Source: Patescibacteria group bacterium (lineage in GTDB: Bacteria > Patescibacteriota > Patescibacteriia > Buchananbacterales > SURF-54). From it: a stretch of 64,000 nucleotides of DNA. The number at the start of each line of letters is the position of its first letter. Within the stretch, counting starts at the first letter, position 1. Shown in pieces: positions 1,164 to 30,165 of the stretch. The position numbers and the translations under genes were made by a program. The notes below the pieces were generated by a model. It was not told the DNA's origin. It saw only the letters and a list, made by a program, of their open reading frames with translations, and did no database searches. The stretch spans positions 32,985 to 96,984 of the forward strand of contig JAHIRB010000040.1 in NCBI GenBank assembly GCA_018818885.1. The letters run 5' to 3'.

Positions 1164-1331
1164 TTAAAATGAGAAAGGATTCAGTTTTAAGGCTTTATAG
1201 ATTAGAAAACTCGCCACCATAAAGCAAAAGATCATAATCCAAAGATTTACTGCCACAATACCACTTATTGCTGATATTACACCAAGAATTGCAAAAGCAA
1301 AAGCCTTCTTCCTAGCTTCCTGTTTTTTCAT
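1164..1331 (-). CDS. 55-aa single-TM small protein (basic N-terminus MKKQEARKK then hydrophobic helix); type-I-toxin-like
   Basis: ATG at 1331 preceded by AAAGGAGGA 9 nt upstream; terminator downstream; below ORF-track length cutoff. Confidence 0.4.
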   Translation of the reverse strand: MKKQEARKKAFAFAILGVISAISGIVAVNLWIMIFCFMVASFLIYKALKLNPFSF

Positions 1332-3886: not shown

Positions 3887-4024
3887 CTACTTTTTTTCTA
3901 ATAAGCACTTGCCGGTTATTTTATCGTATCGGAACAATGTTATGTTGTGATTTAGTATTGCTACGTTTGTCATGCGAGCAGTTGCATTAAACGGCACACC
4001 ATAAGTTTTGTAGTAGTAATACAT
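3887..4024 (-). CDS. 45-aa small ORF (MYYYYKTYGVPFN...)
   Basis: ATG preceded by TGGAGGG (4-nt spacer); own AT-rich upstream region and the 3838-3860 terminator downstream; not in ORF track. Confidence 0.3.
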   Translation of the reverse strand: MYYYYKTYGVPFNATARMTNVAILNHNITLFRYDKITGKCLLEKK

Positions 4025-4079: not shown

Positions 4080-4790
4080 ATGTCAACAATAGGTATAATA
4101 ATACCAACATATAATAACGAGAAAGAAATTTATCAATGCTTAGATAGCATATTTAAGCAAAGTTTTAATGATTTTGAAATTGTAATAGTTAATGATGGAT
4201 CAACTGACAATACTTTAAATGAAATTAACAAGTATATAGATCAATTAGATCAAGTTGATAAAAAAAAGATAAAAGTTATATCACAAGAAAACAAAGGTTC
4301 TAATCCCGCACGAAATAGGGGAGCAAAAGAAATAAAAAATGTAAAATATGTATTATTTTGCGACGCCGATGTCACTTTAAATAAAAACTTTCTACAATTG
4401 ACTAATGAGGTCTTAGAAAATCATCCAGAAAAATCATATTGTTATACCTCATTTGTCTATGGCTATAAAAAATTCAAATTGTACCCATTTAATGCTGAAA
4501 AACTTAAAAAGATGCCTTACATCAATACTCAATCATTAATTCGATTTGATCACTTTCCAGGATTTGATGAAAATATTAAGCGCCTACAAGACTGGGATTT
4601 GTTTTTAACAATGTTGGAACAGAGTCATGAAGGAATTTGGCTTGACAAAGTTATGTTTAAAATTAGTACTAAATCAGGAAAAATCAGTGGAAAATGGCTA
4701 CCATCTTTCATGTACAAATTACCCTTTTTAAAAACCGTAAAAGAATATAATAAAGCAGTAGAAATTATTAAACAAAAACATCACCTATAA
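4080..4790 (+). CDS. glycosyltransferase family 2
   Basis: N-terminal IIIPTYNNE...DGSTD GT-A signature. Confidence 0.8.
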   Translation: MSTIGIIIPTYNNEKEIYQCLDSIFKQSFNDFEIVIVNDGSTDNTLNEINKYIDQLDQVDKKKIKVISQENKGSNPARNRGAKEIKNVKYVLFCDADVTLNKNFLQLTNEVLENHPEKSYCYTSFVYGYKKFKLYPFNAEKLKKMPYINTQSLIRFDHFPGFDENIKRLQDWDLFLTMLEQSHEGIWLDKVMFKISTKSGKISGKWLPSFMYKLPFLKTVKEYNKAVEIIKQKHHL

Positions 4791-4791
4791 T

Positions 4792-7175: not shown

Positions 7176-7334
7176 TTACATAATTTGACCGCAATAGAAA
7201 CAAGCGCACGTCTCGGGATCATACATGTGAGTTTTCCTCCAAAGAAAAACTGAATTTTTCTCACAATAATTTTTAGCTGCAAACAACAGTAAGTGTCCTA
7301 ATGCCCAAAAGAAAATCGCACCTAGACCAATCAT
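7176..7334 (-). CDS. 52-aa small membrane protein with C-terminal Cys cluster (CEKN...ETCACFYCGQIM)
   Basis: ATG at 7334 with AAAGGAGGC 8 nt upstream, immediately downstream of fmt stop (7349); not in ORF track. Confidence 0.4.
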   Translation of the reverse strand: MIGLGAIFFWALGHLLLFAAKNYCEKNSVFLWRKTHMYDPETCACFYCGQIM

Positions 7335-8293: not shown

Positions 8294-8780
8294 TTTTTTT
8301 CATCTCCTCAAGTTTATCTTTTCCTTTGGTAATTTCTTTAGCTTTATCAATGAATAATACTCCTCGTAAATGATCAATTTCGTGTTGGATAACACGTGCG
8401 AACAAATCTTCTGCAATAAATTTTATTTTTTTGCCTTGTTTGTCAAATGCGGTTACTCGAATTATTTTATGCCGGTTGACCATTCCATAAATATCTGGCA
8501 GACTAAGGCATCCTTCTTCTGCTGATTCTTTTTTCCATGATTTTCTCATTATCTTTGGGTTGATTAAAACTATTGATCCGTCCGAAGTATTGATTACCAC
8601 CATATTAATATTTTTTCCAATCTGTGGTGCTGCCAATCCAAGTCCATCCTTTTCTTGCATGGTTTTATCCATATCCAAAATCAGCTGTTGAAATTCTTTA
8701 GATTTAAAATCAACAACTTTTTTAGATTTCTTGCGAAGATCTTTGCAGGGAAAATATGTGATGGGTAATAGCTTTGCCAT
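8280..8780 (-). CDS. def: peptide deformylase
   Basis: GxGLAAPQ, EGCLS and HEIDHL motifs; start taken at MAKLLPIT. Confidence 0.9.
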   Translation of the reverse strand: MAKLLPITYFPCKDLRKKSKKVVDFKSKEFQQLILDMDKTMQEKDGLGLAAPQIGKNINMVVINTSDGSIVLINPKIMRKSWKKESAEEGCLSLPDIYGMVNRHKIIRVTAFDKQGKKIKFIAEDLFARVIQHEIDHLRGVLFIDKAKEITKGKDKLEEMKKNDYC

Positions 8781-8951
8781 AATTAATAGATTATAGCAGT
8801 GAATCAGGATTAATGTCAACGATCCAGTCGTCAGGAACTTGCGACATTATTTTTCCTTTTTCTTTTTGAGATATTGAATTAGATAATTTTATAACTACAT
8901 ACCAACGATACCTGCCGCGAACTCTTGGCACATATTCTGCTCAAGAAATCC

Positions 8952-9209
8952 TCAATTGACGGTTTCTTTGTTATTTACAAGTTTAAAAAAATATTTCCAG
9001 CATTCGCCGGTCTTGCAGAGTTCCTTGGTGTCATTGAGCCATTTTTCCACTTCGTTTTTTGAGTTTTTTTTGCAAACCAAAAAGACTGAATTTCTTTTTT
9101 GAGGAGGGATGTTTAACTCGTCAATTATCCTTAAAGCTAAATCCTGCCATGGGTAAGCTGGTGCTTTAATGGTTTGTTTCTTATTTAAAATGTCTTTGAT
9201 GTTATCCAT
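8952..9209 (-). CDS. hypothetical protein (85 aa)
   Basis: ORF only. Confidence 0.4.
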   Translation of the reverse strand: MDNIKDILNKKQTIKAPAYPWQDLALRIIDELNIPPQKRNSVFLVCKKNSKNEVEKWLNDTKELCKTGECWKYFFKLVNNKETVN

Positions 9210-9318
9210 AGCATTTGTATTATATCAAAAATACCCAAAGATTTAGGCAAACGAACATACTGAATTATTTCTACATATTTTGGCATACAAAGTTATTTTA
9301 ACATTTATACAAAAAGAG

Positions 9319-9353
9319 AAGAAGACCGTGCATAAAAAGCTTCCGGTCTTCTT
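9319..9353 (-). terminator. intrinsic terminator ending the Memo-like/small-ORF operon
   Basis: 10-bp perfect stem aagaagaccg/cggtcttctt, followed on minus strand by ctcttttt. Confidence 0.55.
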
Positions 9354-9378
9354 AATTTATCGAGTGTCTATACACTCA

Positions 9379-9582
9379 CTAAGCAGTTCTGAATATTACA
9401 GGATCTTCTTGCGCATTTTCATTAATTGCTTGCCTGTGTTCTTTTTCTATTTGTCGACATTGTTCGACCCACTGATCTGCAGACTCCCTGAGAGCTTTGA
9501 TGATTTTTGGGCTGAAATGTGTATGCGGTGGCATACCAACATAGTCATGACTTTCTGTGCATATTTCACACATATCACTCAA
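9379..9582 (-). CDS. 67-aa small protein P3 (MSDMCEICTESHDYVGMPPHTHF...)
   Basis: GC-richer than surroundings; TTG/ATG start after gagaaaggaa; last gene before terminator; preferred over overlapping plus-strand ORF 9280..9627 which is low-complexity. Confidence 0.4.
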   Translation of the reverse strand: MSDMCEICTESHDYVGMPPHTHFSPKIIKALRESADQWVEQCRQIEKEHRQAINENAQEDPVIFRTA

Positions 9583-9726
9583 ATTCCTTTCTCGTGGTTA
9601 ACAAATTTGTTGCTTTTGGTACACTAGTACCTGTGTAGAAGACAAATGATAGTACGGAGAAATTGCCACCAAGACAATTCAGAAAGAAATTCTTCAATGG
9701 TTTGTTCATAAGGATAATGACACATA

Positions 9727-9873
9727 TTAATCGTCTCCCGTATCAGGTGCTAAAGTTGATCGTATCCCAAATTTTTCCTCATACTTTTTGAGCACCACAC
9801 GCGCCTGACCAATTTCTTCATCTGTAACATTGTGAAGACCAACCTCGTTTGTGTTTTCTGATTCTAAGTTCAT
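9727..9873 (-). CDS. 48-aa small acidic protein P2 (MNLESENTNEVGLHNVTDEEIGQARVVLKKYEEKFGIRSTLAPDTGDD)
   Basis: ATG at 9873 preceded by G7 tract (tgggggggaattgacaa) acting as SD; not in ORF track. Confidence 0.4.
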   Translation of the reverse strand: MNLESENTNEVGLHNVTDEEIGQARVVLKKYEEKFGIRSTLAPDTGDD

Positions 9874-9946
9874 TTGTCAATTCCCCCCCAATTTTTTACC
9901 GCATTCCCAATTGATTACGTATTGCATCATCAAAATATTCAGTAGT

Positions 9947-10123
9947 TTATTCAAGATTTCTCTCATCGCTGAAAGCTTCACGAAGAAATCTCAGTGTTTC
10001 AGCAATTTTAGCCATTTTATCCATCATACTCTCTATACCAAGATGGCGCCGAATTTCTTCGTGAGTTTGTGCTGACTTATCACGTATGATTGTATTTATT
10101 ACATTTTCATCAACACTCATCAT
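9947..10123 (-). CDS. 58-aa small protein P1 (MMSVDENVINTIIRDKSAQTHEEIRRHLGIESMMDKMAKIAETLRFLREAFSDERNLE)
   Basis: ATG 20 bp downstream of Memo-like stop, preceded by GAAGGGAGGGG 4 nt upstream; not in ORF track. Confidence 0.45.
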   Translation of the reverse strand: MMSVDENVINTIIRDKSAQTHEEIRRHLGIESMMDKMAKIAETLRFLREAFSDERNLE

Positions 10124-10152
10124 TGACCCCTCCCTTCAATATTTTAACCTAG

Positions 10153-10947
10153 TTAAAACTTAATATTTGCCACTAGGTAACCTACCCCAAACGGTCCCTC
10201 GTAAGACATTATTTCTACTTGATAATCAATATCTTTTAGTATGCCCATCAAAATAATAAATGACCTAAGGCCACATTCACCAGCTTGATTGATTAAGCCC
10301 TCATCTAAATTAATTAACCCTTTAACATCTCTATTTTCAATGAGATCAATTAATTTTCGATCAAATATTTTACCTTGTTTAGTGTAACCACCCGGAGCAT
10401 CTTTTGTCAAGCAATGAGAAAGATCTCCAGAAGCAATAACTGCTACACGTTTGTCATACCTACATATTTGATTATGTAGGTATAAACCAAACTTGTAATG
10501 ATCTTCTAAGCTAAGCATGGAAAATCCTACTGGAACTATTGGTACATCCTCTAAATGTTGTGTGAGATAGAATAATGGGACAGAAACTCCATGATCAACT
10601 CTTTCATCAGTAATTAAAGCCAAAGGAACAGATTTGTGATTTTCGTCGTGTGCTCGTATGCTCTGTATTAAAGAAAAGTCAGAATCAAATTTTAAACTAG
10701 TAGAAAAATCACCAAATTGCTCAAAGTCACACACAAATTTTGGTGCGATATTTATTGAAAACGCATCTTCTAAAATATTACCGTGCGGAGAAATAACTAC
10801 AATAGAATCTGGCCTTCTAACATAAAGTTCTTTTTCTAATTCCTCCATTGCAATTTTTGTTTTTTGGACAAGATCAAGATGCTTCTTACCAATGGTAGGA
10901 ATTAGTATTGGAGGATGAGGGGTTATACACGCGAATTCAAGTGACAT
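10153..10947 (-). CDS. LigB/Memo-superfamily (class III extradiol dioxygenase-like) protein; candidate AmmeMemoRadiSam system protein B
   Basis: N-terminal ITPHPP...SPHG, central DHG, C-terminal ASGDLSH and ECG motifs characteristic of the LigB/Memo fold; 2.4 kb from AmmeMemoRadiSam-type radical SAM. Confidence 0.55.
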   Translation of the reverse strand: MSLEFACITPHPPILIPTIGKKHLDLVQKTKIAMEELEKELYVRRPDSIVVISPHGNILEDAFSINIAPKFVCDFEQFGDFSTSLKFDSDFSLIQSIRAHDENHKSVPLALITDERVDHGVSVPLFYLTQHLEDVPIVPVGFSMLSLEDHYKFGLYLHNQICRYDKRVAVIASGDLSHCLTKDAPGGYTKQGKIFDRKLIDLIENRDVKGLINLDEGLINQAGECGLRSFIILMGILKDIDYQVEIMSYEGPFGVGYLVANIKF

Positions 10948-10950
10948 AGT

Positions 10951-11040
10951 TAACTAATTACGTATTTATGCGAATATACATATTACTAATAATTTTTTAT
11001 TCGTATATTTGTATAGATTAGTAATTTGTAATTAATTATA
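10951..11040. promoter_or_regulatory. AT-rich ~85-bp upstream element E1 (aattacgtat..cgaatatacat..attcgtatatt..aatttgtaattaa), homologous to element upstream of eno
   Basis: about 70% identical over ~85 bp to 58730-58812; contains inverted tacgaatatac/gtatattcgta-like arms. Confidence 0.45.
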
Positions 11041-11065
11041 TATTATAATACTGATCTTGTTAATA

Positions 11066-11138: not shown

Positions 11139-11339
11139 ATGGGACAACGCCTAGAGCTCATGACGTCAGAAACAATATTGGATTGTGGTCATGGTACTCC
11201 ACAAATGTGTCCGGCACTAGTTGTGCTCAGTAATGGTGGAAAATGTAACCCGCCGCAAGCCGAAATGGTTTCTAGCCACACAGCTACAACAATTCCAAGC
11301 ACTTGTCCAAATAATCTTGATGAGAAGAAACTACAATAG
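11139..11339 (+). CDS. 66-aa Cys-rich peptide P4 (MGQRLELMTSETILDCGHGTPQMCPALVVLSNGGKCNPPQ...STCPNN); candidate modified-peptide precursor
   Basis: AAGGAGGG SD 6 nt before ATG; 5 Cys; GC-richer island. Confidence 0.45.
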   Translation: MGQRLELMTSETILDCGHGTPQMCPALVVLSNGGKCNPPQAEMVSSHTATTIPSTCPNNLDEKKLQ

Positions 11340-11353
11340 GGAGGGTAGCAAAA

Positions 11354-11779
11354 ATGTGCAAGATTCTTCATATCGAAGACGCTCCATTCACAAAAGATGA
11401 ACCATTTGCGGCATTCGTGGAAACAAACGCAGGGTGGATACGCGTAGAGAGAAGAAGCCATTATCAGACTTCACTGATCAAGGCGCTCTATGACTACTTT
11501 CTTCATCACGACTACCCTTTACCCATCATGTTCCTAAAAAACAACCTTCCGGGGATCCATATGACTTTGGCAGATCTCTTCGACGAGAACCCCAAAGAAA
11601 CCATTGAAATCATGGAAAAAATTTGCGACGACATGGCGACTAGAAAAAACACAACCGAGGATGTTGAGTATCTCGAAATTCTCGCTGAATCACTCGATTC
11701 CGAAAACGATTCCGAAAGATACTCTGTTCTATGCGCCAGGCTAAAAATCACTCATAGATTAATCATGGCCAGCGTTTAG
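11354..11779 (+). CDS. 141-aa hypothetical protein P5
   Basis: GGGAGGG SD before ATG; co-transcribed with P4; no recognisable domain (not AMMECR1-like). Confidence 0.45.
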   Translation: MCKILHIEDAPFTKDEPFAAFVETNAGWIRVERRSHYQTSLIKALYDYFLHHDYPLPIMFLKNNLPGIHMTLADLFDENPKETIEIMEKICDDMATRKNTTEDVEYLEILAESLDSENDSERYSVLCARLKITHRLIMASV

Positions 11780-11809: not shown

Positions 11810-11848
11810 GCAGGCTCCTGCTAAATATGGAGCCTGCATTTTCTTTTT
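11810..11848. terminator. bidirectional intrinsic terminator
   Basis: stem gcaggctcc/ggagcctgc with 10-nt loop followed by attttcttttt; overlaps stop of convergent minus gene. Confidence 0.55.
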
Positions 11849-13202
11849 ACTCGATCACTTCGCCTAAAGGATGAATACCTACTGCATTAGGAGATGTAAT
11901 AATAATATTTCGCCAACTGTATCCTAAGCTTTCAAAAACATCACCAGAAATAATTGGTCGGCGCTTGCCCTCAGAGATTACATATACTGCTGGTTCATTC
12001 ATTGATTTAATTAACTCACCATCAGTAAATTTAACAGGGCTGCTGGTTAAGTAATTTTCTAATTCATCCGGGCTTACAGATGTTAATTCTTTGTTGCGAT
12101 ATTTTGCTAACCAAATTTCTTTTGAATAAATTGGATGTTTTAAGCCGTCTGCAACATAAAATATTCCGCCAGTTTTGTTGTCTTGCAGTAATGCTCCTGT
12201 TGGATAAACACTAGACATTGTAATAGGATCTCCTTTTTCTAAACTTTTTAGATCAGATTCTAAAACATTTTCTACTTCGTCCCAGTTATAGCCGATTGTT
12301 CTAAATACTTCCATAGAAGAGATGTGGCGTAGAGTATCATCAACTAATAAATAGACTGTTCCTGTTGGAATGCGGAGTAGGGAATAGTTAGCAAATTCAA
12401 TATCAGGACCTTTTGGATATATTTCTATGTCAGAACTAGCAACTGTAATAATCTTATTTACATCAAATCTTGAAAGCAAAACTGAGTAAGAGTCTATTCG
12501 TTTTCTTATACCATGGTGAATATACCAGACATCAGAATCACCAACCACTTGGAGCAAAGATCCGTCAGGATAAGTATAATCCCAGTAATCTTGCCAAATA
12601 CGCCAAAAGTTTTTATTGCCAGAAATGTGAGGTGTGTAATTGTACAAATTAGCAGTTGCTTGGTTAATTGGAGTAACGATATAAAAATCAACTTCTGAAG
12701 TTTTGCCTACTTGATAATTATATTCTGATGATTTTCTGATATATTTACGCATTATGGTAGCTAAAAAATGAACCTGAGTACCAAAACCCTTAAAGAAAGC
12801 AAGGTCAGGATCAGAAGAATTACAACTATCACACAAAGCGTAGCCAGTTGCCCAATCATAATTACGTTGTGTTGGATTTTTTCCTTCTATTAAACTTTGT
12901 TCTTTCTGCAGCATGGTAATTATGAATTTTGGACTAATTTGATTTTCACGCGATGCATCATAAATAATTTGAGCTACTGACTTTGTATGTCCTAAAAAGT
13001 TTGGAAAAGACATGTTAGCTAAAGTACTTTGTTTTGCTTCCAAAAAATTTTGAATGTCTACTAAAGATAGTGATTCATAATCAGTGAGTTCTTGGTCGGA
13101 AATTATGTAGTTTTGATCAAATATACTCGAAGCATTAATGAAACTAGGAAGGCTGATTCCTAGTATAGAGATGATAATAGTTGTTGAGATAATTTTTTTC
13201 AT
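11847..13202 (-). CDS. secreted hypothetical protein (~451 aa) with N-terminal signal peptide
   Basis: MKKIISTTIIISILGISLPSFINASS signal-like N-terminus; sits between Memo-like operon and radical SAM gene. Confidence 0.55.
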   Translation of the reverse strand: MKKIISTTIIISILGISLPSFINASSIFDQNYIISDQELTDYESLSLVDIQNFLEAKQSTLANMSFPNFLGHTKSVAQIIYDASRENQISPKFIITMLQKEQSLIEGKNPTQRNYDWATGYALCDSCNSSDPDLAFFKGFGTQVHFLATIMRKYIRKSSEYNYQVGKTSEVDFYIVTPINQATANLYNYTPHISGNKNFWRIWQDYWDYTYPDGSLLQVVGDSDVWYIHHGIRKRIDSYSVLLSRFDVNKIITVASSDIEIYPKGPDIEFANYSLLRIPTGTVYLLVDDTLRHISSMEVFRTIGYNWDEVENVLESDLKSLEKGDPITMSSVYPTGALLQDNKTGGIFYVADGLKHPIYSKEIWLAKYRNKELTSVSPDELENYLTSSPVKFTDGELIKSMNEPAVYVISEGKRRPIISGDVFESLGYSWRNIIITSPNAVGIHPLGEVIE

Positions 13203-13215
13203 GGTTGTCTTACTC

Positions 13216-13313
13216 GTCATTGCGAACGAAGTGAAGTCATGCCAGAGGCAGATCCGCCCCTGGCGGACAATCTCCTAGGGGATTGCTTCGTCTCTTCGAT
13301 CCTCGCAATGACA
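13216..13313. repeat. GC-rich palindromic intergenic element (REP-like), copy A
   Basis: outer 10-bp inverted repeat gtcattgcga/tcgcaatgac flanking hairpin gccagaggcagatccgcccctggc; core atctgcctctggcatga also at 32784-32850. Confidence 0.5.
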
Positions 13314-14339
13314 TTATATTAATACCCCGTCGATTATTGTTTTGCACTTTGAGCACTTCCCATTATCATCTAATCTATTAGTTTGATAAGCAAGTCGTTC
13401 AATAATTTTCTCGTTACATTTTGGACAATAAGTGATACTTGTTTCATTATCCATAATATTACCACTATACACATATTTTAGGCCAGCAGTTTTACCGATC
13501 TCTACTGCTTTCAAGATAGCTCTTTGAGATGTTTGTGGTGTATTGATCATTTTATAAGCAGAAGAAAAAGCAGTAACATGCCATGGAGTTTCAGAACCCA
13601 AATCGTTGTTAATAAAGTTGGCAATATTAGTTAGTTCTTCAATTGAATCATTCTGCTTTGGTATAATCAATGTAGTAACCTCAACCCACACACCTAGTTT
13701 TTTTAGCAGTCTTAAATTATTAAGAACAGGTAGTAGTTTTGCACCACAAATTTGCTGATAGGTAGTTTCTTTAAAAAATTTTAAATCTACATTCACAGCA
13801 TCCAAAAACTCAGCTACTTTTGTCAGCGCATCTGTAGAAGTATAACCATTGGTAACCCAAGTATTTTTTAAACCTTCTTTTTTTGCTAACTTCATGCAAT
13901 CTAAAGCAAACTCATAAAATACCGTTGGTTCAGTATAGGTATATGAAATTGATTGGCAGTTTGAATTTTTAGCTTCCTCAACAATCTGTTGTGGGGTAAC
14001 ATTTTCTCCGGGTAACTCATATTTATCGTAAAAAAAACCTTCTTTTGAACTCTGAGATATATCTGCATTCTGGCAATGCATGCACTTTAAATTACAACCA
14101 ACTGTGGCAATTGAGTATGATTGGCTTCCTGACAAGAAGTGATAAAATGGTTTTTTTTCGATAGGATCAACGTGTTGAGCAATAACCTTTCCATAAACCA
14201 AGGAGTATAGTATACCTTTTCTGTTTTCTCGTACACCGCAAAGTCCACGATGATTATCTGCTATCACGCATCCTTGGTTGCACAAAGTGCATTTGACTTT
14301 GTTATCATTAATTTTTTGAAAAAAATCTGCTTTTTTCAT
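13314..14339 (-). CDS. radical SAM enzyme, PFL-activase-like; best resembles AmmeMemoRadiSam system radical SAM enzyme
   Basis: VGCNLKCMHCQN CX3CX2C motif, HVDPIEKKPFYHF, N-terminal KVKCTLCNQGCVIADNHRGLCGVREN and C-terminal CPKCN..CSKCK Cys pairs; ATG start at 14339 preferred, TTG at 14399 overlapping upstream sORF stop is an alternative. Confidence 0.7.
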   Translation of the reverse strand: MKKADFFQKINDNKVKCTLCNQGCVIADNHRGLCGVRENRKGILYSLVYGKVIAQHVDPIEKKPFYHFLSGSQSYSIATVGCNLKCMHCQNADISQSSKEGFFYDKYELPGENVTPQQIVEEAKNSNCQSISYTYTEPTVFYEFALDCMKLAKKEGLKNTWVTNGYTSTDALTKVAEFLDAVNVDLKFFKETTYQQICGAKLLPVLNNLRLLKKLGVWVEVTTLIIPKQNDSIEELTNIANFINNDLGSETPWHVTAFSSAYKMINTPQTSQRAILKAVEIGKTAGLKYVYSGNIMDNETSITYCPKCNEKIIERLAYQTNRLDDNGKCSKCKTIIDGVLI

Positions 14340-14395
14340 ATAACTTAATTTTAGCAAAAAAAGAAGAGCCCACCAAGGTAGGCTCAATGGTTCGC

Positions 14396-14557
14396 TCAAA
14401 CACTTAACATTTTGTGTAATCTGCTCAGGTCACGCCAGTTACAATATTCCTGCATTCCATCTAAAAAAGCTGAAAAATTGGTTCGATCTTCTTCTGACAT
14501 ATCAAAAAAACTGAATCCGCTATCACCCGTGTGACCGTTTCTTTCTATCATGCTCAT
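14396..14557 (-). CDS. 53-aa small protein (MSMIERNGHTGDSGFSFFDMSEEDRTNFSAFLDGMQEYCNWRDLSRLHKMLSV) immediately upstream of radical SAM gene
   Basis: GAAAGGAGGGG SD 5 nt before ATG; stop TGA overlaps in-frame TTG of radical SAM ORF (gttTGAgcg); own promoter; not in ORF track. Confidence 0.45.
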   Translation of the reverse strand: MSMIERNGHTGDSGFSFFDMSEEDRTNFSAFLDGMQEYCNWRDLSRLHKMLSV

Positions 14558-20001: not shown

Positions 20002-20310
20002 ATGAGTAATCTAGATAGATTCGCTACAATCGATCGATGCTTGGAACAAATGAGAGCTGACGAAGCAAAAAGAGGGTTTATGCGCCTTTTACATACCCAC
20101 AAAAGAGGAGAAAGCTTCACCCTAACCTTGCTTAAATACCTCGACAGCTTTGTGCTGTCCTGGCATCGCCTCTGGATAAGGCGGGACGAGTTTCACAAAT
20201 CGCTGGGGATAAACCCCATGGCATGTTACCGCATGAACAGACATCAACTCCGTTGCTTCGAACATGACTTATCCTGGCGCAGAGATATCGCGCACTGGAG
20301 GACTATCTGA
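20002..20310 (+). CDS. 102-aa Trp/Arg-rich hypothetical protein in GC-richer island
   Basis: GAGGAGGTGA SD 5 nt before ATG; followed by perfect 9-bp hairpin ggggaaaac-gaaaa-gttttcccc (20339-20361). Confidence 0.45.
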   Translation: MSNLDRFATIDRCLEQMRADEAKRGFMRLLHTHKRGESFTLTLLKYLDSFVLSWHRLWIRRDEFHKSLGINPMACYRMNRHQLRCFEHDLSWRRDIAHWRTI

Positions 20311-20872: not shown

Positions 20873-21287
20873 AATTGATATATCAAAATTTACCACCTTT
20901 CACAATAGCGCTGGTGGAGTAGTAATCAATCCTAATGGACAAATCGCTGTTGTTCAAATGGATTCCCGTGATTGGAGTTTTCCAAAAGGTCATGTTGACA
21001 AAGGAGAAACAACAATACAAGCAGCTAAAAGAGAGATATATGAAGAAACTGGTATTAAATATTTAAAACTGATTAAAGAATATCCAACATACCAGAGGCC
21101 TGACGGATCAAATCCTAAAGAGCTGAAAACAATCAACTTGTTTTTATTTAGCACAAAAGAAACGGAACTAAAACCACAAGAGTCTGATATTGTACAAGCT
21201 ATTTGGGTAGAGAAAGATAAGGTGATTGAAACGCTTTCACATCAAGGAGACAAAGATTTTTTTAATAGTATTAAAAACGAAATATAA
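20865..21287 (+). CDS. NUDIX hydrolase
   Basis: Nudix box GHVDKGETTIQAAKREIYEETGI. Confidence 0.8.
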   Translation: MNKIDISKFTTFHNSAGGVVINPNGQIAVVQMDSRDWSFPKGHVDKGETTIQAAKREIYEETGIKYLKLIKEYPTYQRPDGSNPKELKTINLFLFSTKETELKPQESDIVQAIWVEKDKVIETLSHQGDKDFFNSIKNEI

Positions 21288-21288
21288 T

Positions 21289-26195: not shown

Positions 26196-26426
26196 TTACG
26201 ACGTTGGAGGGCCCGATTGATTTCCACCTTGCTCCTTTATGAATTGTACGTTATCCAGAACGACCGTTAAAACTTTGCTCATACTCTCATCGTATTGATC
26301 GTCAGTCTCATCTGGCTTTTGTTCTCTGGAAAGTACTTCCCATCCTATTCCGGTATCACCTAACGCCTGTACAACCTTATGAGTTTTAGGAAATCTCCTG
26401 GCAAATTCTGCCGATTGAATATCCAT
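26196..26426 (-). CDS. 76-aa acidic small protein in GC-richer island
   Basis: GAGGAGGG SD 7 nt before ATG; convergent with basic 45-aa ORF. Confidence 0.4.
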   Translation of the reverse strand: MDIQSAEFARRFPKTHKVVQALGDTGIGWEVLSREQKPDETDDQYDESMSKVLTVVLDNVQFIKEQGGNQSGPPTS

Positions 26427-29850: not shown

Positions 29851-29910
29851 ATGCGTAACCTGCATATCAACAGCCTAAAAAGGATGTCGTTCAACTAGAA
29901 GGAGGTTAGA

Positions 29911-30153
29911 ATGAATCTTTATGTCTACACTATGCAAAGAGATCCTGCTAGTCTACCCACAATAGAAGCCGTGGCGACAGATTTCAGCAGGGAATCGGCT
30001 GACAGCAAAGTGTCAGAAAGCAACGAAAATGTTGCGAGAATGCTCGTAGACGAAGCAGAGGCATCAAAATGCTCGTTTAATATTGTCGAGTTTACCAACA
30101 TTGACGTCTGCCAGATGCATATCTCGAGCGGCCAAACAGTGCCAGTCGGATAA
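29911..30153 (+). CDS. 80-aa acidic small protein in GC-richer island
   Basis: AGAAGGAGGT SD 6 nt before ATG; terminator follows. Confidence 0.45.
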   Translation: MNLYVYTMQRDPASLPTIEAVATDFSRESADSKVSESNENVARMLVDEAEASKCSFNIVEFTNIDVCQMHISSGQTVPVG

Positions 30154-30165
30154 CTGCCTAAAAAG

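Follow-up and report, generated by a model that had tools for sequence, protein, structure and literature searches.

What are the three small open reading frames (ORFs) that lie closely packed behind a Memo-like gene in a genome of the Patescibacteria, and are they genes at all? The locus was examined in a stretch of 64,000 nucleotides (nt; hereafter the window), which belongs to a 106-kb contig of a metagenome-assembled genome (MAG) of the Patescibacteria (candidate phyla radiation, CPR) and carries locus tags of the series KKA15_059xx. The ORFs, here designated P1, P2 and P3, are annotated at NCBI as 'hypothetical protein' (MBU1165059-61). On balance, we favor the reading that P1, P2 and probably P3 specify lineage-specific, orphan, small acidic cytoplasmic proteins on an inserted, promoterless cassette of ~0.85 kb.

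The features of this locus are encoded on the minus strand, and their coordinates are given in the direction of reading. The Memo-like gene (10947..10153) belongs to the Memo/LigB family and encodes the AmmeMemoRadiSam system protein B, as indicated by its matches to PF02900 (LigB, 1.8e-39), PF01875 (Memo, 2.5e-10) and TIGR04336 (37 bits, over its cutoff). Among its homologues (n=5552) the closest, at locus L002, is 71% identical and the next is at most 58% identical. Downstream follow P1 (10123..9947, 58 amino acids [aa]), P2 (9873..9727, 48 aa) and P3 (9573..9379, 64 aa), the predicted products of which are acidic and hydrophilic (isoelectric points of 5.3, 4.5 and 5.4, respectively). An initial annotation of this DNA had reported three such tightly packed ORFs, all of which are present. 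For P3, which opens with MCEICTESHDYVGMPPHTH, the ATG at 9573 is more likely to be the start than the TTG at 9582 that was used in the initial annotation and would give 67 aa; the ATG form is the one deposited (at NCBI, among other sources) and the one called on the Logan contig L001, an additional assembly record for this locus. Several sources (NCBI, JGI/IMG, Logan and ENA) list the sequences of P1, P2 and P3, each of which was also called as a gene on the Logan contig. A fourth small ORF of 33 aa (9725..9624), which overlaps the stop codon of P2 (TAATATG), had been overlooked and is not among the genes called on that contig. The gap between the stop codon of the Memo-like gene and P1 measures 29 nt rather than the 20 bp given initially, and it contains the Shine-Dalgarno (SD) site GGGAGGGG (10134..10127) that had been pointed out ahead of P1. 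The spacer between P1 and P2 is 73 nt long and includes a run of seven G residues (G7, 9889..9883).

Because the antisense strand of this AT-rich DNA carries an ORF of 115 aa (next to one of 74 aa), ORF length is uninformative by itself. We therefore scored codon usage with a log-likelihood model trained on 42 long ORFs of the window, for which chunks of true genes gave values of 0.35 +/- 0.15 and 96 spurious ORFs nested in real genes gave a mean of −0.06 and a maximum of 0.29. P1 (0.38) and P2 (0.50, the best of the set) scored above all 96 spurious ORFs and at or above the mean of true genes. P3 scored 0.19, a value that 9% of the spurious ORFs attain, and the 33-aa ORF scored −0.10, as is typical of a spurious ORF. 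Along each ORF the codon signal follows the expected frame. Judged by codon usage and initiation signals, P1 and P2 are very probably translated genes and the 33-aa ORF is unlikely to be one; a coding function of P3 is plausible and the evidence for it ambiguous.

The second line of evidence concerns initiation of translation. An SD site was defined as a motif complementary to the canonical anti-SD sequence, located about 3-11 nt upstream of the start and stronger than background. The anti-SD duplex energies amounted to −12.1 kcal/mol for P1, −9.8 kcal/mol for P2, −7.4 kcal/mol for the 33-aa ORF and −5.9 kcal/mol for P3, and the energies of P1, P2 and P3 are reached by 0.2%, 1% and 7% of random sites, respectively. 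The sites of P1 and P2 are stronger than the SD of any of the long genes in the window (about 50); even with the best alternative start allowed, a duplex of −5 kcal/mol is reached in only 2 of 52 long genes. In the window, an SD core combined with an ATG and an ORF of 45 aa or more is seen 20 times, versus 1.3 +/- 1.0 times in dinucleotide shuffles, an excess of about 15-fold. Fourteen of these 20 SD-led ORFs have a length of 45-150 aa, and most are placed between long genes. An SD is also found at fmt, a promoter-distal gene that starts inside the end of the def ORF.

The upstream regions of the long genes are AT-rich and SD-less, and an exact TATAAT is found at most 16 nt from the ATG in 8 of 49 long genes versus 1.8 expected (for example at 4783-4791, 21280-21288 and 8781-8795). 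The pattern points to leaderless or short-leader mRNAs of the long genes, transcribed from promoters close to the gene. There appear to be two translation regimes in one genome, with SD-less long genes on the one hand and about a dozen small, mostly orphan ORFs with SDs close to the consensus on the other. This split could be of help in finding truly translated micro-genes in CPR MAGs. It is conceivable that the cell is otherwise SD-independent and that its SD-led orphan micro-genes make up a translation class of their own, dependent on SDs and under separate regulation, but we regard this as a very long shot.

The G7 run (C7 on the plus strand, 9883-9889) lies 9 nt before the ATG of P2, and its position and duplex energy bear out the earlier suggestion that it acts as the SD of P2. 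The further proposal, that slipped-strand changes in this tract switch the translation of P2 on and off, found no support. In its favor are the presence of a homopolymer this close to the P2 start, as in the phase-variable poly-G tracts near translation starts of Neisseria, Haemophilus and Campylobacter, and the fact that it is the only G7 in the window. However, one such run per 64 kb is what chance predicts (0.9 expected; at least one in 51 of 100 shuffles). Tracts that slip efficiently at contingency loci are usually at least 8 nt long, and 7 nt is at or below the usual length. Moreover, the P2 tract sits within the SD, between the preceding stop codon and the ATG, and not in an ORF or in a promoter spacer as at contingency loci. 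A slip by one residue would leave an SD of G6 or G8 and would change the spacing from 9 to 8 or 10 nt only, and so would produce no on/off switch. The tract also has the same length in the window and in the Logan contig. Taken together, a contingency switch at P2 is highly improbable.

Behind P3, the initial annotation had placed a clean terminator, which is borne out by folding: the segment 9353..9319 forms a hairpin with a 10-bp GC-rich stem that is followed by the U-run CUCUUUUUG (dG of −24 kcal/mol, z = −3.84, with none of 200 shuffles being equally good). A pattern scan with a loop limit of 3-8 nt did not list this terminator, the folded loop of which comprises about 13 nt. Neither a terminator nor any significant RNA structure was found between the ORFs, the inter-ORF spacers having z-values of −0.56 and +0.17 versus shuffles. 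The best candidate promoter of the Memo-like transcript, TTAACA-17-TATAAT, is located at 11063..11035. We infer from the common strand, the tight packing, the separate SDs, the lack of an internal terminator and the strong terminator after P3 that co-transcription of P1-P3 with the Memo-like gene, as had been claimed before, is plausible.

Do related proteins occur elsewhere? A word-indexed search among 5.8 billion proteins returned only P1's own cluster, and for P3 phmmer, run exhaustively on 1.84 billion representatives, returned only P3 itself and two repeat-protein artefacts. One of these artefacts is a four-fold repeated sulfotransferase (PPETHFIPDVIKA versus PPHTHFSPKIIKA) with 28 bits per single repeat, and the other is a tandem-repeat protein; in both cases the score had been summed over the repeats, and we rejected them as homologues. 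For P2 no relative was detected in phage records, viral contigs or metagenome contigs. The clusters of P1, P2 and P3 at 90% identity hold only the copies of this genome, the second member of the P1 cluster being a start variant annotated by NCBI. Searches by tblastn of 89 related loci (747 kb) gave a best E-value of 0.29 for P1-P3, and paired queries against viral and metagenome collections gave nothing real. A metagenome match (L091) was discarded, as it lies antisense to a portal-like gene on a high-GC contig and has only the search word ADQWVEQC in common with the query. A concatenated P1+P2+P3 protein query returned nothing, not even the self clusters, and was counted as uninformative. None of the three ORFs belongs to a Pfam, NCBIfam or PHROG family (only sub-threshold chance matches were obtained), and none has a natural relative in the PDB or a paralogue within the window. 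We also rejected the ideas that P1-P3 are remnants of AMMECR1 or of PriA, or fragments of a single gene broken up by frameshifts, for which there were no profile signals and no paralogues in the window. A hidden Markov model (HMM) of AMMECR1 built from three syntenic proteins gave a best E-value of 0.8 with six-frame fragments of 8700-10250, and the Pfam model (PF01871) gave nothing.

Without an alignment, AlphaFold2 predicts P1 to be a two-helix hairpin (helices 4-28 and 30-57) with a predicted local distance difference test (pLDDT) score of 92. A Foldseek search of the PDB with this model gave no match, and the sequence search found only de novo designed helical repeat proteins. P3 is modeled as one long helix (22-56) preceded by N-terminal residues 1-20 with pLDDT values of 54-64. 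The Cys and His residues of P3 that had been noticed earlier, candidates for a zinc finger or zinc ribbon, can be read in the sequence as C2, C5, H9, H17 and H19; they correspond to no Pfam match and fall in the N-terminal part that folds with low confidence.

Patescibacteria have been described as a phylum with many unknown genes (PMC10849945), and our literature search on AmmeMemoRadiSam, on SD usage in Patescibacteria and on PriA in CPR bacteria yielded nothing specific. P1-P3 resemble the orphan small-protein genes of Patescibacteria in being short, devoid of homologues and domains, and annotated as hypothetical. Unlike such genes in general, they sit in a defined promoterless three-cistron cassette with strong SDs, a terminator and a 9-bp repeat at a known slot. 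As orphan small genes that are common in Patescibacteria they are nevertheless of an ordinary kind, and on their own they add little and provide no functional lead.

The initial annotation had set its protein reading against a region that lacks conserved ORFs and instead matches a structured RNA family. The first half of this description applies, the ORFs being conserved nowhere, but no RNA family was matched. Across the window there were no Rfam matches at gathering score, and those in the region were at chance level (E up to 10); the best one in 9100-10300 was to a eukaryotic snoRNA model (E = 0.81, 22.8 bits versus a cutoff of 39). Since the spacers fold like shuffled sequences and the codon signal is strong and frame-specific, it is barely credible that the region specifies a structured non-coding RNA instead of proteins.

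How did P1-P3 come to lie at this position? In relatives (L003, L004/5, L006/7 and L010) the gene order is radical SAM, an unknown protein of ~450 aa, Memo-like, AMMECR1 (in some), PriA (617-668 aa), def and fmt. The slot of P1-P3, from the stop codon of the Memo-like gene to the old priA start, is occupied by AMMECR1 in L004, L006 and L010, and by a 62-bp spacer with a terminator in L003. In L002, the closest relative, the Memo-like gene is followed by a terminator and then by sequence of a different kind, and P1 is lacking. By comparison of these loci the cassette is lineage-specific, as it is missing from L002 and from all 89 related loci. Of the three copies of the 9-bp direct repeat GTTAAAATA in the window, two mark the cassette junctions, the left one (10148..10140) lying 4 nt past the Memo-like stop and the right one (9302..9294) 7 nt ahead of the ATG of a priA stub. 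For a 9-mer common to two random 40-nt intergenic windows the chance is P = 0.009, and the arrangement suggests that the cassette was possibly inserted with a 9-bp target duplication. We found no convincing flanking inverted repeats or mobile-element ends. Neither the lineage-specific insertion nor the decayed priA downstream of it had been recognized before.

What is left of priA consists of an N-terminal stub (9286..9224) and a C-terminal stub (8934..8794), between which lies an unrelated conserved ORF of 85 aa (o85, 9209..8952). The N-terminal stub is 67% identical to residues 1-21 of the L003 PriA, and the PriA HMM matches it with E = 1.7e-3 over profile positions 5-21 (fragment 9292..9188). 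The C-terminal stub is 47% identical to L003 PriA 571-617 (E = 8.5e-10), with an HMM match of E = 3e-15 over profile positions 594-640 (fragment 8940..8794). These are the only two places in the interval between the Memo-like gene and def, which measures only 1.33 kb in the window, that are matched by PriA proteins and the PriA HMM, and neither lies inside P1-P3. The stubs are in the right order and on the right strand, in three different frames relative to the ORF between them, and no other priA was found in the 64-kb window. As judged from these remnants, priA is gutted in the window, with only the first 21 and the last 47 codons left. Compared with an intact PriA, the primosomal helicase of replication restart (PF17764, PF18074), the stubs still lie where priA ancestrally stood, between the Memo-like gene and def, whereas about 550 core codons are missing and o85 is present in their place; P1-P3 show no similarity to PriA.

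Next to a gene reduced to stubs, P1-P3 might themselves be non-functional, that is, leftovers of foreign or rearranged DNA in a decaying locus, relics or accidents that are no longer selected. Several observations point in this direction and weigh against the view that P1-P3 are functional genes. No homologue of P1, P2 or P3 was found, and hence there is no sign of purifying selection; for P2 the protein searches were the weakest of the three, none being exhaustive. Chance ORFs of the size of P1-P3 are frequent in this AT-rich DNA, as the antisense 115-aa ORF illustrates. P3 is weak in both its codon score and its SD, and the 33-aa ORF lacks a coding signal. The 9-bp repeat was spotted post hoc (nominal P about 0.01), and the locus is visibly rearranged so that the ORFs could be decaying foreign DNA. 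On the other side, P1 and P2 use codons in a host-typical way and score above every spurious ORF, their SDs are the strongest in the window and properly spaced, a clean terminator follows P3, and SD-led small ORFs in general are strongly enriched over chance. We consider non-functional ORFs to be a real, though clearly minor, possibility.

The cassette could also be the cargo of a CPR mobile element, phage or plasmid, for example a toxin-antitoxin-like or anti-defence module at an insertion hot spot. In several other genomes (L019:5253-8451, L027:5223-7192, L054:5244-6825 and L070:5220-8172), the junction where o85 meets the Memo-like gene contains unrelated insertions that measure 0.5-3.2 kb and include ORFs as long as 460 aa, and by this comparison the junction is a recurrent insertion hot spot. 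The variability of the slot, the 9-bp repeat on both flanks, an SD usage that differs from that of the host genes, and the small, acidic and orphan nature of all three products agree with such an origin. So does the GC content of the P1-P3 segment (37.6% versus 33.3% for the window), although the GC enrichment described initially is mild, corresponding to the 92nd percentile among windows of the same size. Against this, the cassette DNA has no similarity to sequences in phage and plasmid collections, the proteins match nothing in viral collections or PHROGs, and no PADLOC family (toxin-antitoxin or anti-phage defence) was hit at E up to 1. There is likewise no integrase, transposase or terminal inverted repeat, and P1 and P2 resemble host genes in their codon usage. 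Mobile cargo is therefore an unlikely explanation. The cassette shares with integron-type cassettes short promoterless ORFs at a fixed site, transcription from upstream and a cargo that varies by genome, but no attC-like imperfect inverted repeat or integrase was seen near P1-P3, and three cistrons plus a terminator make up the unit.

The position of the cassette raises one more alternative. The AmmeMemoRadiSam system comprises a radical SAM protein, protein B (TIGR04336) and AMMECR1 as protein A (PF01871), and P1-P3 adjoin the gene for protein B, with which they may be co-transcribed, in the position held by AMMECR1 in L004, L006 and L010. They could thus be accessory partners or peptide substrates of the radical-SAM/Memo-like system that functionally replace AMMECR1, which was not found in the 64-kb window, and a radical-SAM gene is indeed located two genes upstream. 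However, the module of radical-SAM, ~450-aa and Memo-like genes is conserved in about 89 loci without any P1-P3-like genes, L003 and all loci of the o85 type also lack AMMECR1 in the slot, and P1-P3 have no sequence relation to AMMECR1. We deem such a replacement very improbable. The same low expectation applies to the related idea that P1-P3 are a newly evolved, lineage-specific accessory set of this system, serving as adaptors in place of AMMECR1 or as radical-SAM peptide substrates. Because the cassette is missing from every related locus, it is in any case accessory and not part of the core of the module.

We thus return to P1-P3 as functional orphan genes on an inserted cassette, for which the following course of events can be proposed. 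The cassette would have been inserted right after the Memo-like gene, in a slot that is variable among Patescibacteria (AMMECR1 or nothing, then PriA), and priA would since have been gutted in this lineage. A single transcript would run from the Memo-like promoter through P1-P3 and stop at the hairpin, and each cistron would be translated independently from its own SD, the G7 run acting as the SD of P2 with no phase switch. A promoterless cassette would need such SD-led internal initiation because the ordinary genes are SD-less and apparently have promoter-proximal short leaders. Co-transcription, translation, the mode of insertion and function are all inferences, and as to function small protein-binding modulators would be the most likely role, with P1 as a helical hairpin, P2 as an acidic peptide and P3 as a helix with a Cys/His head.

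The priA scar with o85, together with the dichotomy in SD usage, is in our view more worth following than P1-P3. It is o85 that occurs in at least 85 species-representative genomes (85 loci confirmed by tblastn, 48-72% identity; members include L008:4868-5101 and L011-L090), with 18 invariant residues that include W21, Q22, C46, a TKEL run and WKYFFK. It adjoins the Memo-like gene in 79 of 80 fetched loci and is found between this gene and def wherever both flanks were fetched, being co-directional or inverted. No relative was found in Pfam, NCBIfam or the PDB, and the possibility that o85 is a PriA-derived domain was rejected (hhalign probability of 0.1%). From its conservation we conclude that o85 is a real conserved gene encoding a widespread uncharacterised small protein. 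No PriA or PriA remnants were detected within 5 kb on either side of o85 in the fetched loci and, conversely, loci of the PriA type lack o85. The two are thus mutually exclusive at this slot, and the window is the sole locus with both states. In a tree of Memo-like proteins the window groups with L002 and PriA-type loci, in a clade that is sister to the subclade with the o85 genes nearest to that of the window. An extended −10 motif (TGATATAAT), read by eye, is located 4 nt upstream of the ATG of the window's o85, inside the N-terminal priA stub. The locus thus appears to have caught a replacement of priA in the act, and it provides a handle on how and when PriA was lost or displaced in reduced genomes.

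In loci with an inverted o85, a conserved ORF of 44-45 aa (MKQN..ELKF.LT.QLEAY....LEEKILELEKKL) was observed directly upstream of def (L008:5734-5868, L011:3566-3703, L012:3763-3900, L014:4173-4310 and L059:1376-1513), and small membrane-like ORFs often precede it in the gap. In the closest relative, a terminator-like hairpin after the Memo-like gene is followed by an unusually GC-rich stretch that extends to the contig end (L002:2880-3044) and in which neither an Rfam family nor a tRNA was found.

Other SD-led small ORFs of the window, none of which matches a Pfam family, are located on the minus strand at 1331..1164, 4024..3887, 7334..7176, 14557..14396 and 26426..26196, and on the plus strand at 11139..11339, 11354..11779, 20002..20310 and 29911..30153. 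Their GC contents range from 33% to 47%, and those on record sit alone in their clusters. The 80-aa orphan at 29911-30153 is bracketed by a 10-bp direct repeat, GCCTAAAAAG, at 29873-29882 and 30156-30165. We rejected flanking direct repeats as a general trait of SD-led small ORFs, as this was the one further case and, with the wide windows used, not above expectation.

The ORFs at 11139-11339 and 11354-11779 form a divergent, GC-rich (43.7%) pair with strong SDs that separates the 457-aa gene from the Memo-like gene. The first encodes a Cys/Thr/Pro-rich product of 66 aa with the look of a peptide precursor. For the product of the second (141 aa), L002 has a counterpart of 35% identity in the corresponding position, and most other relatives have nothing there. 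The ~450-aa protein, which has no Pfam match (encoded within 11847-14399, minus strand), is 43-67% identical in L002-L004. Nearly all of the ~89 loci have its gene next to the Memo-like gene and, where a radical-SAM gene was detected, this lies on the opposite flank. The ~450-aa protein has the appearance of a fourth, so far undescribed component of the AmmeMemoRadiSam neighborhood in Patescibacteria.

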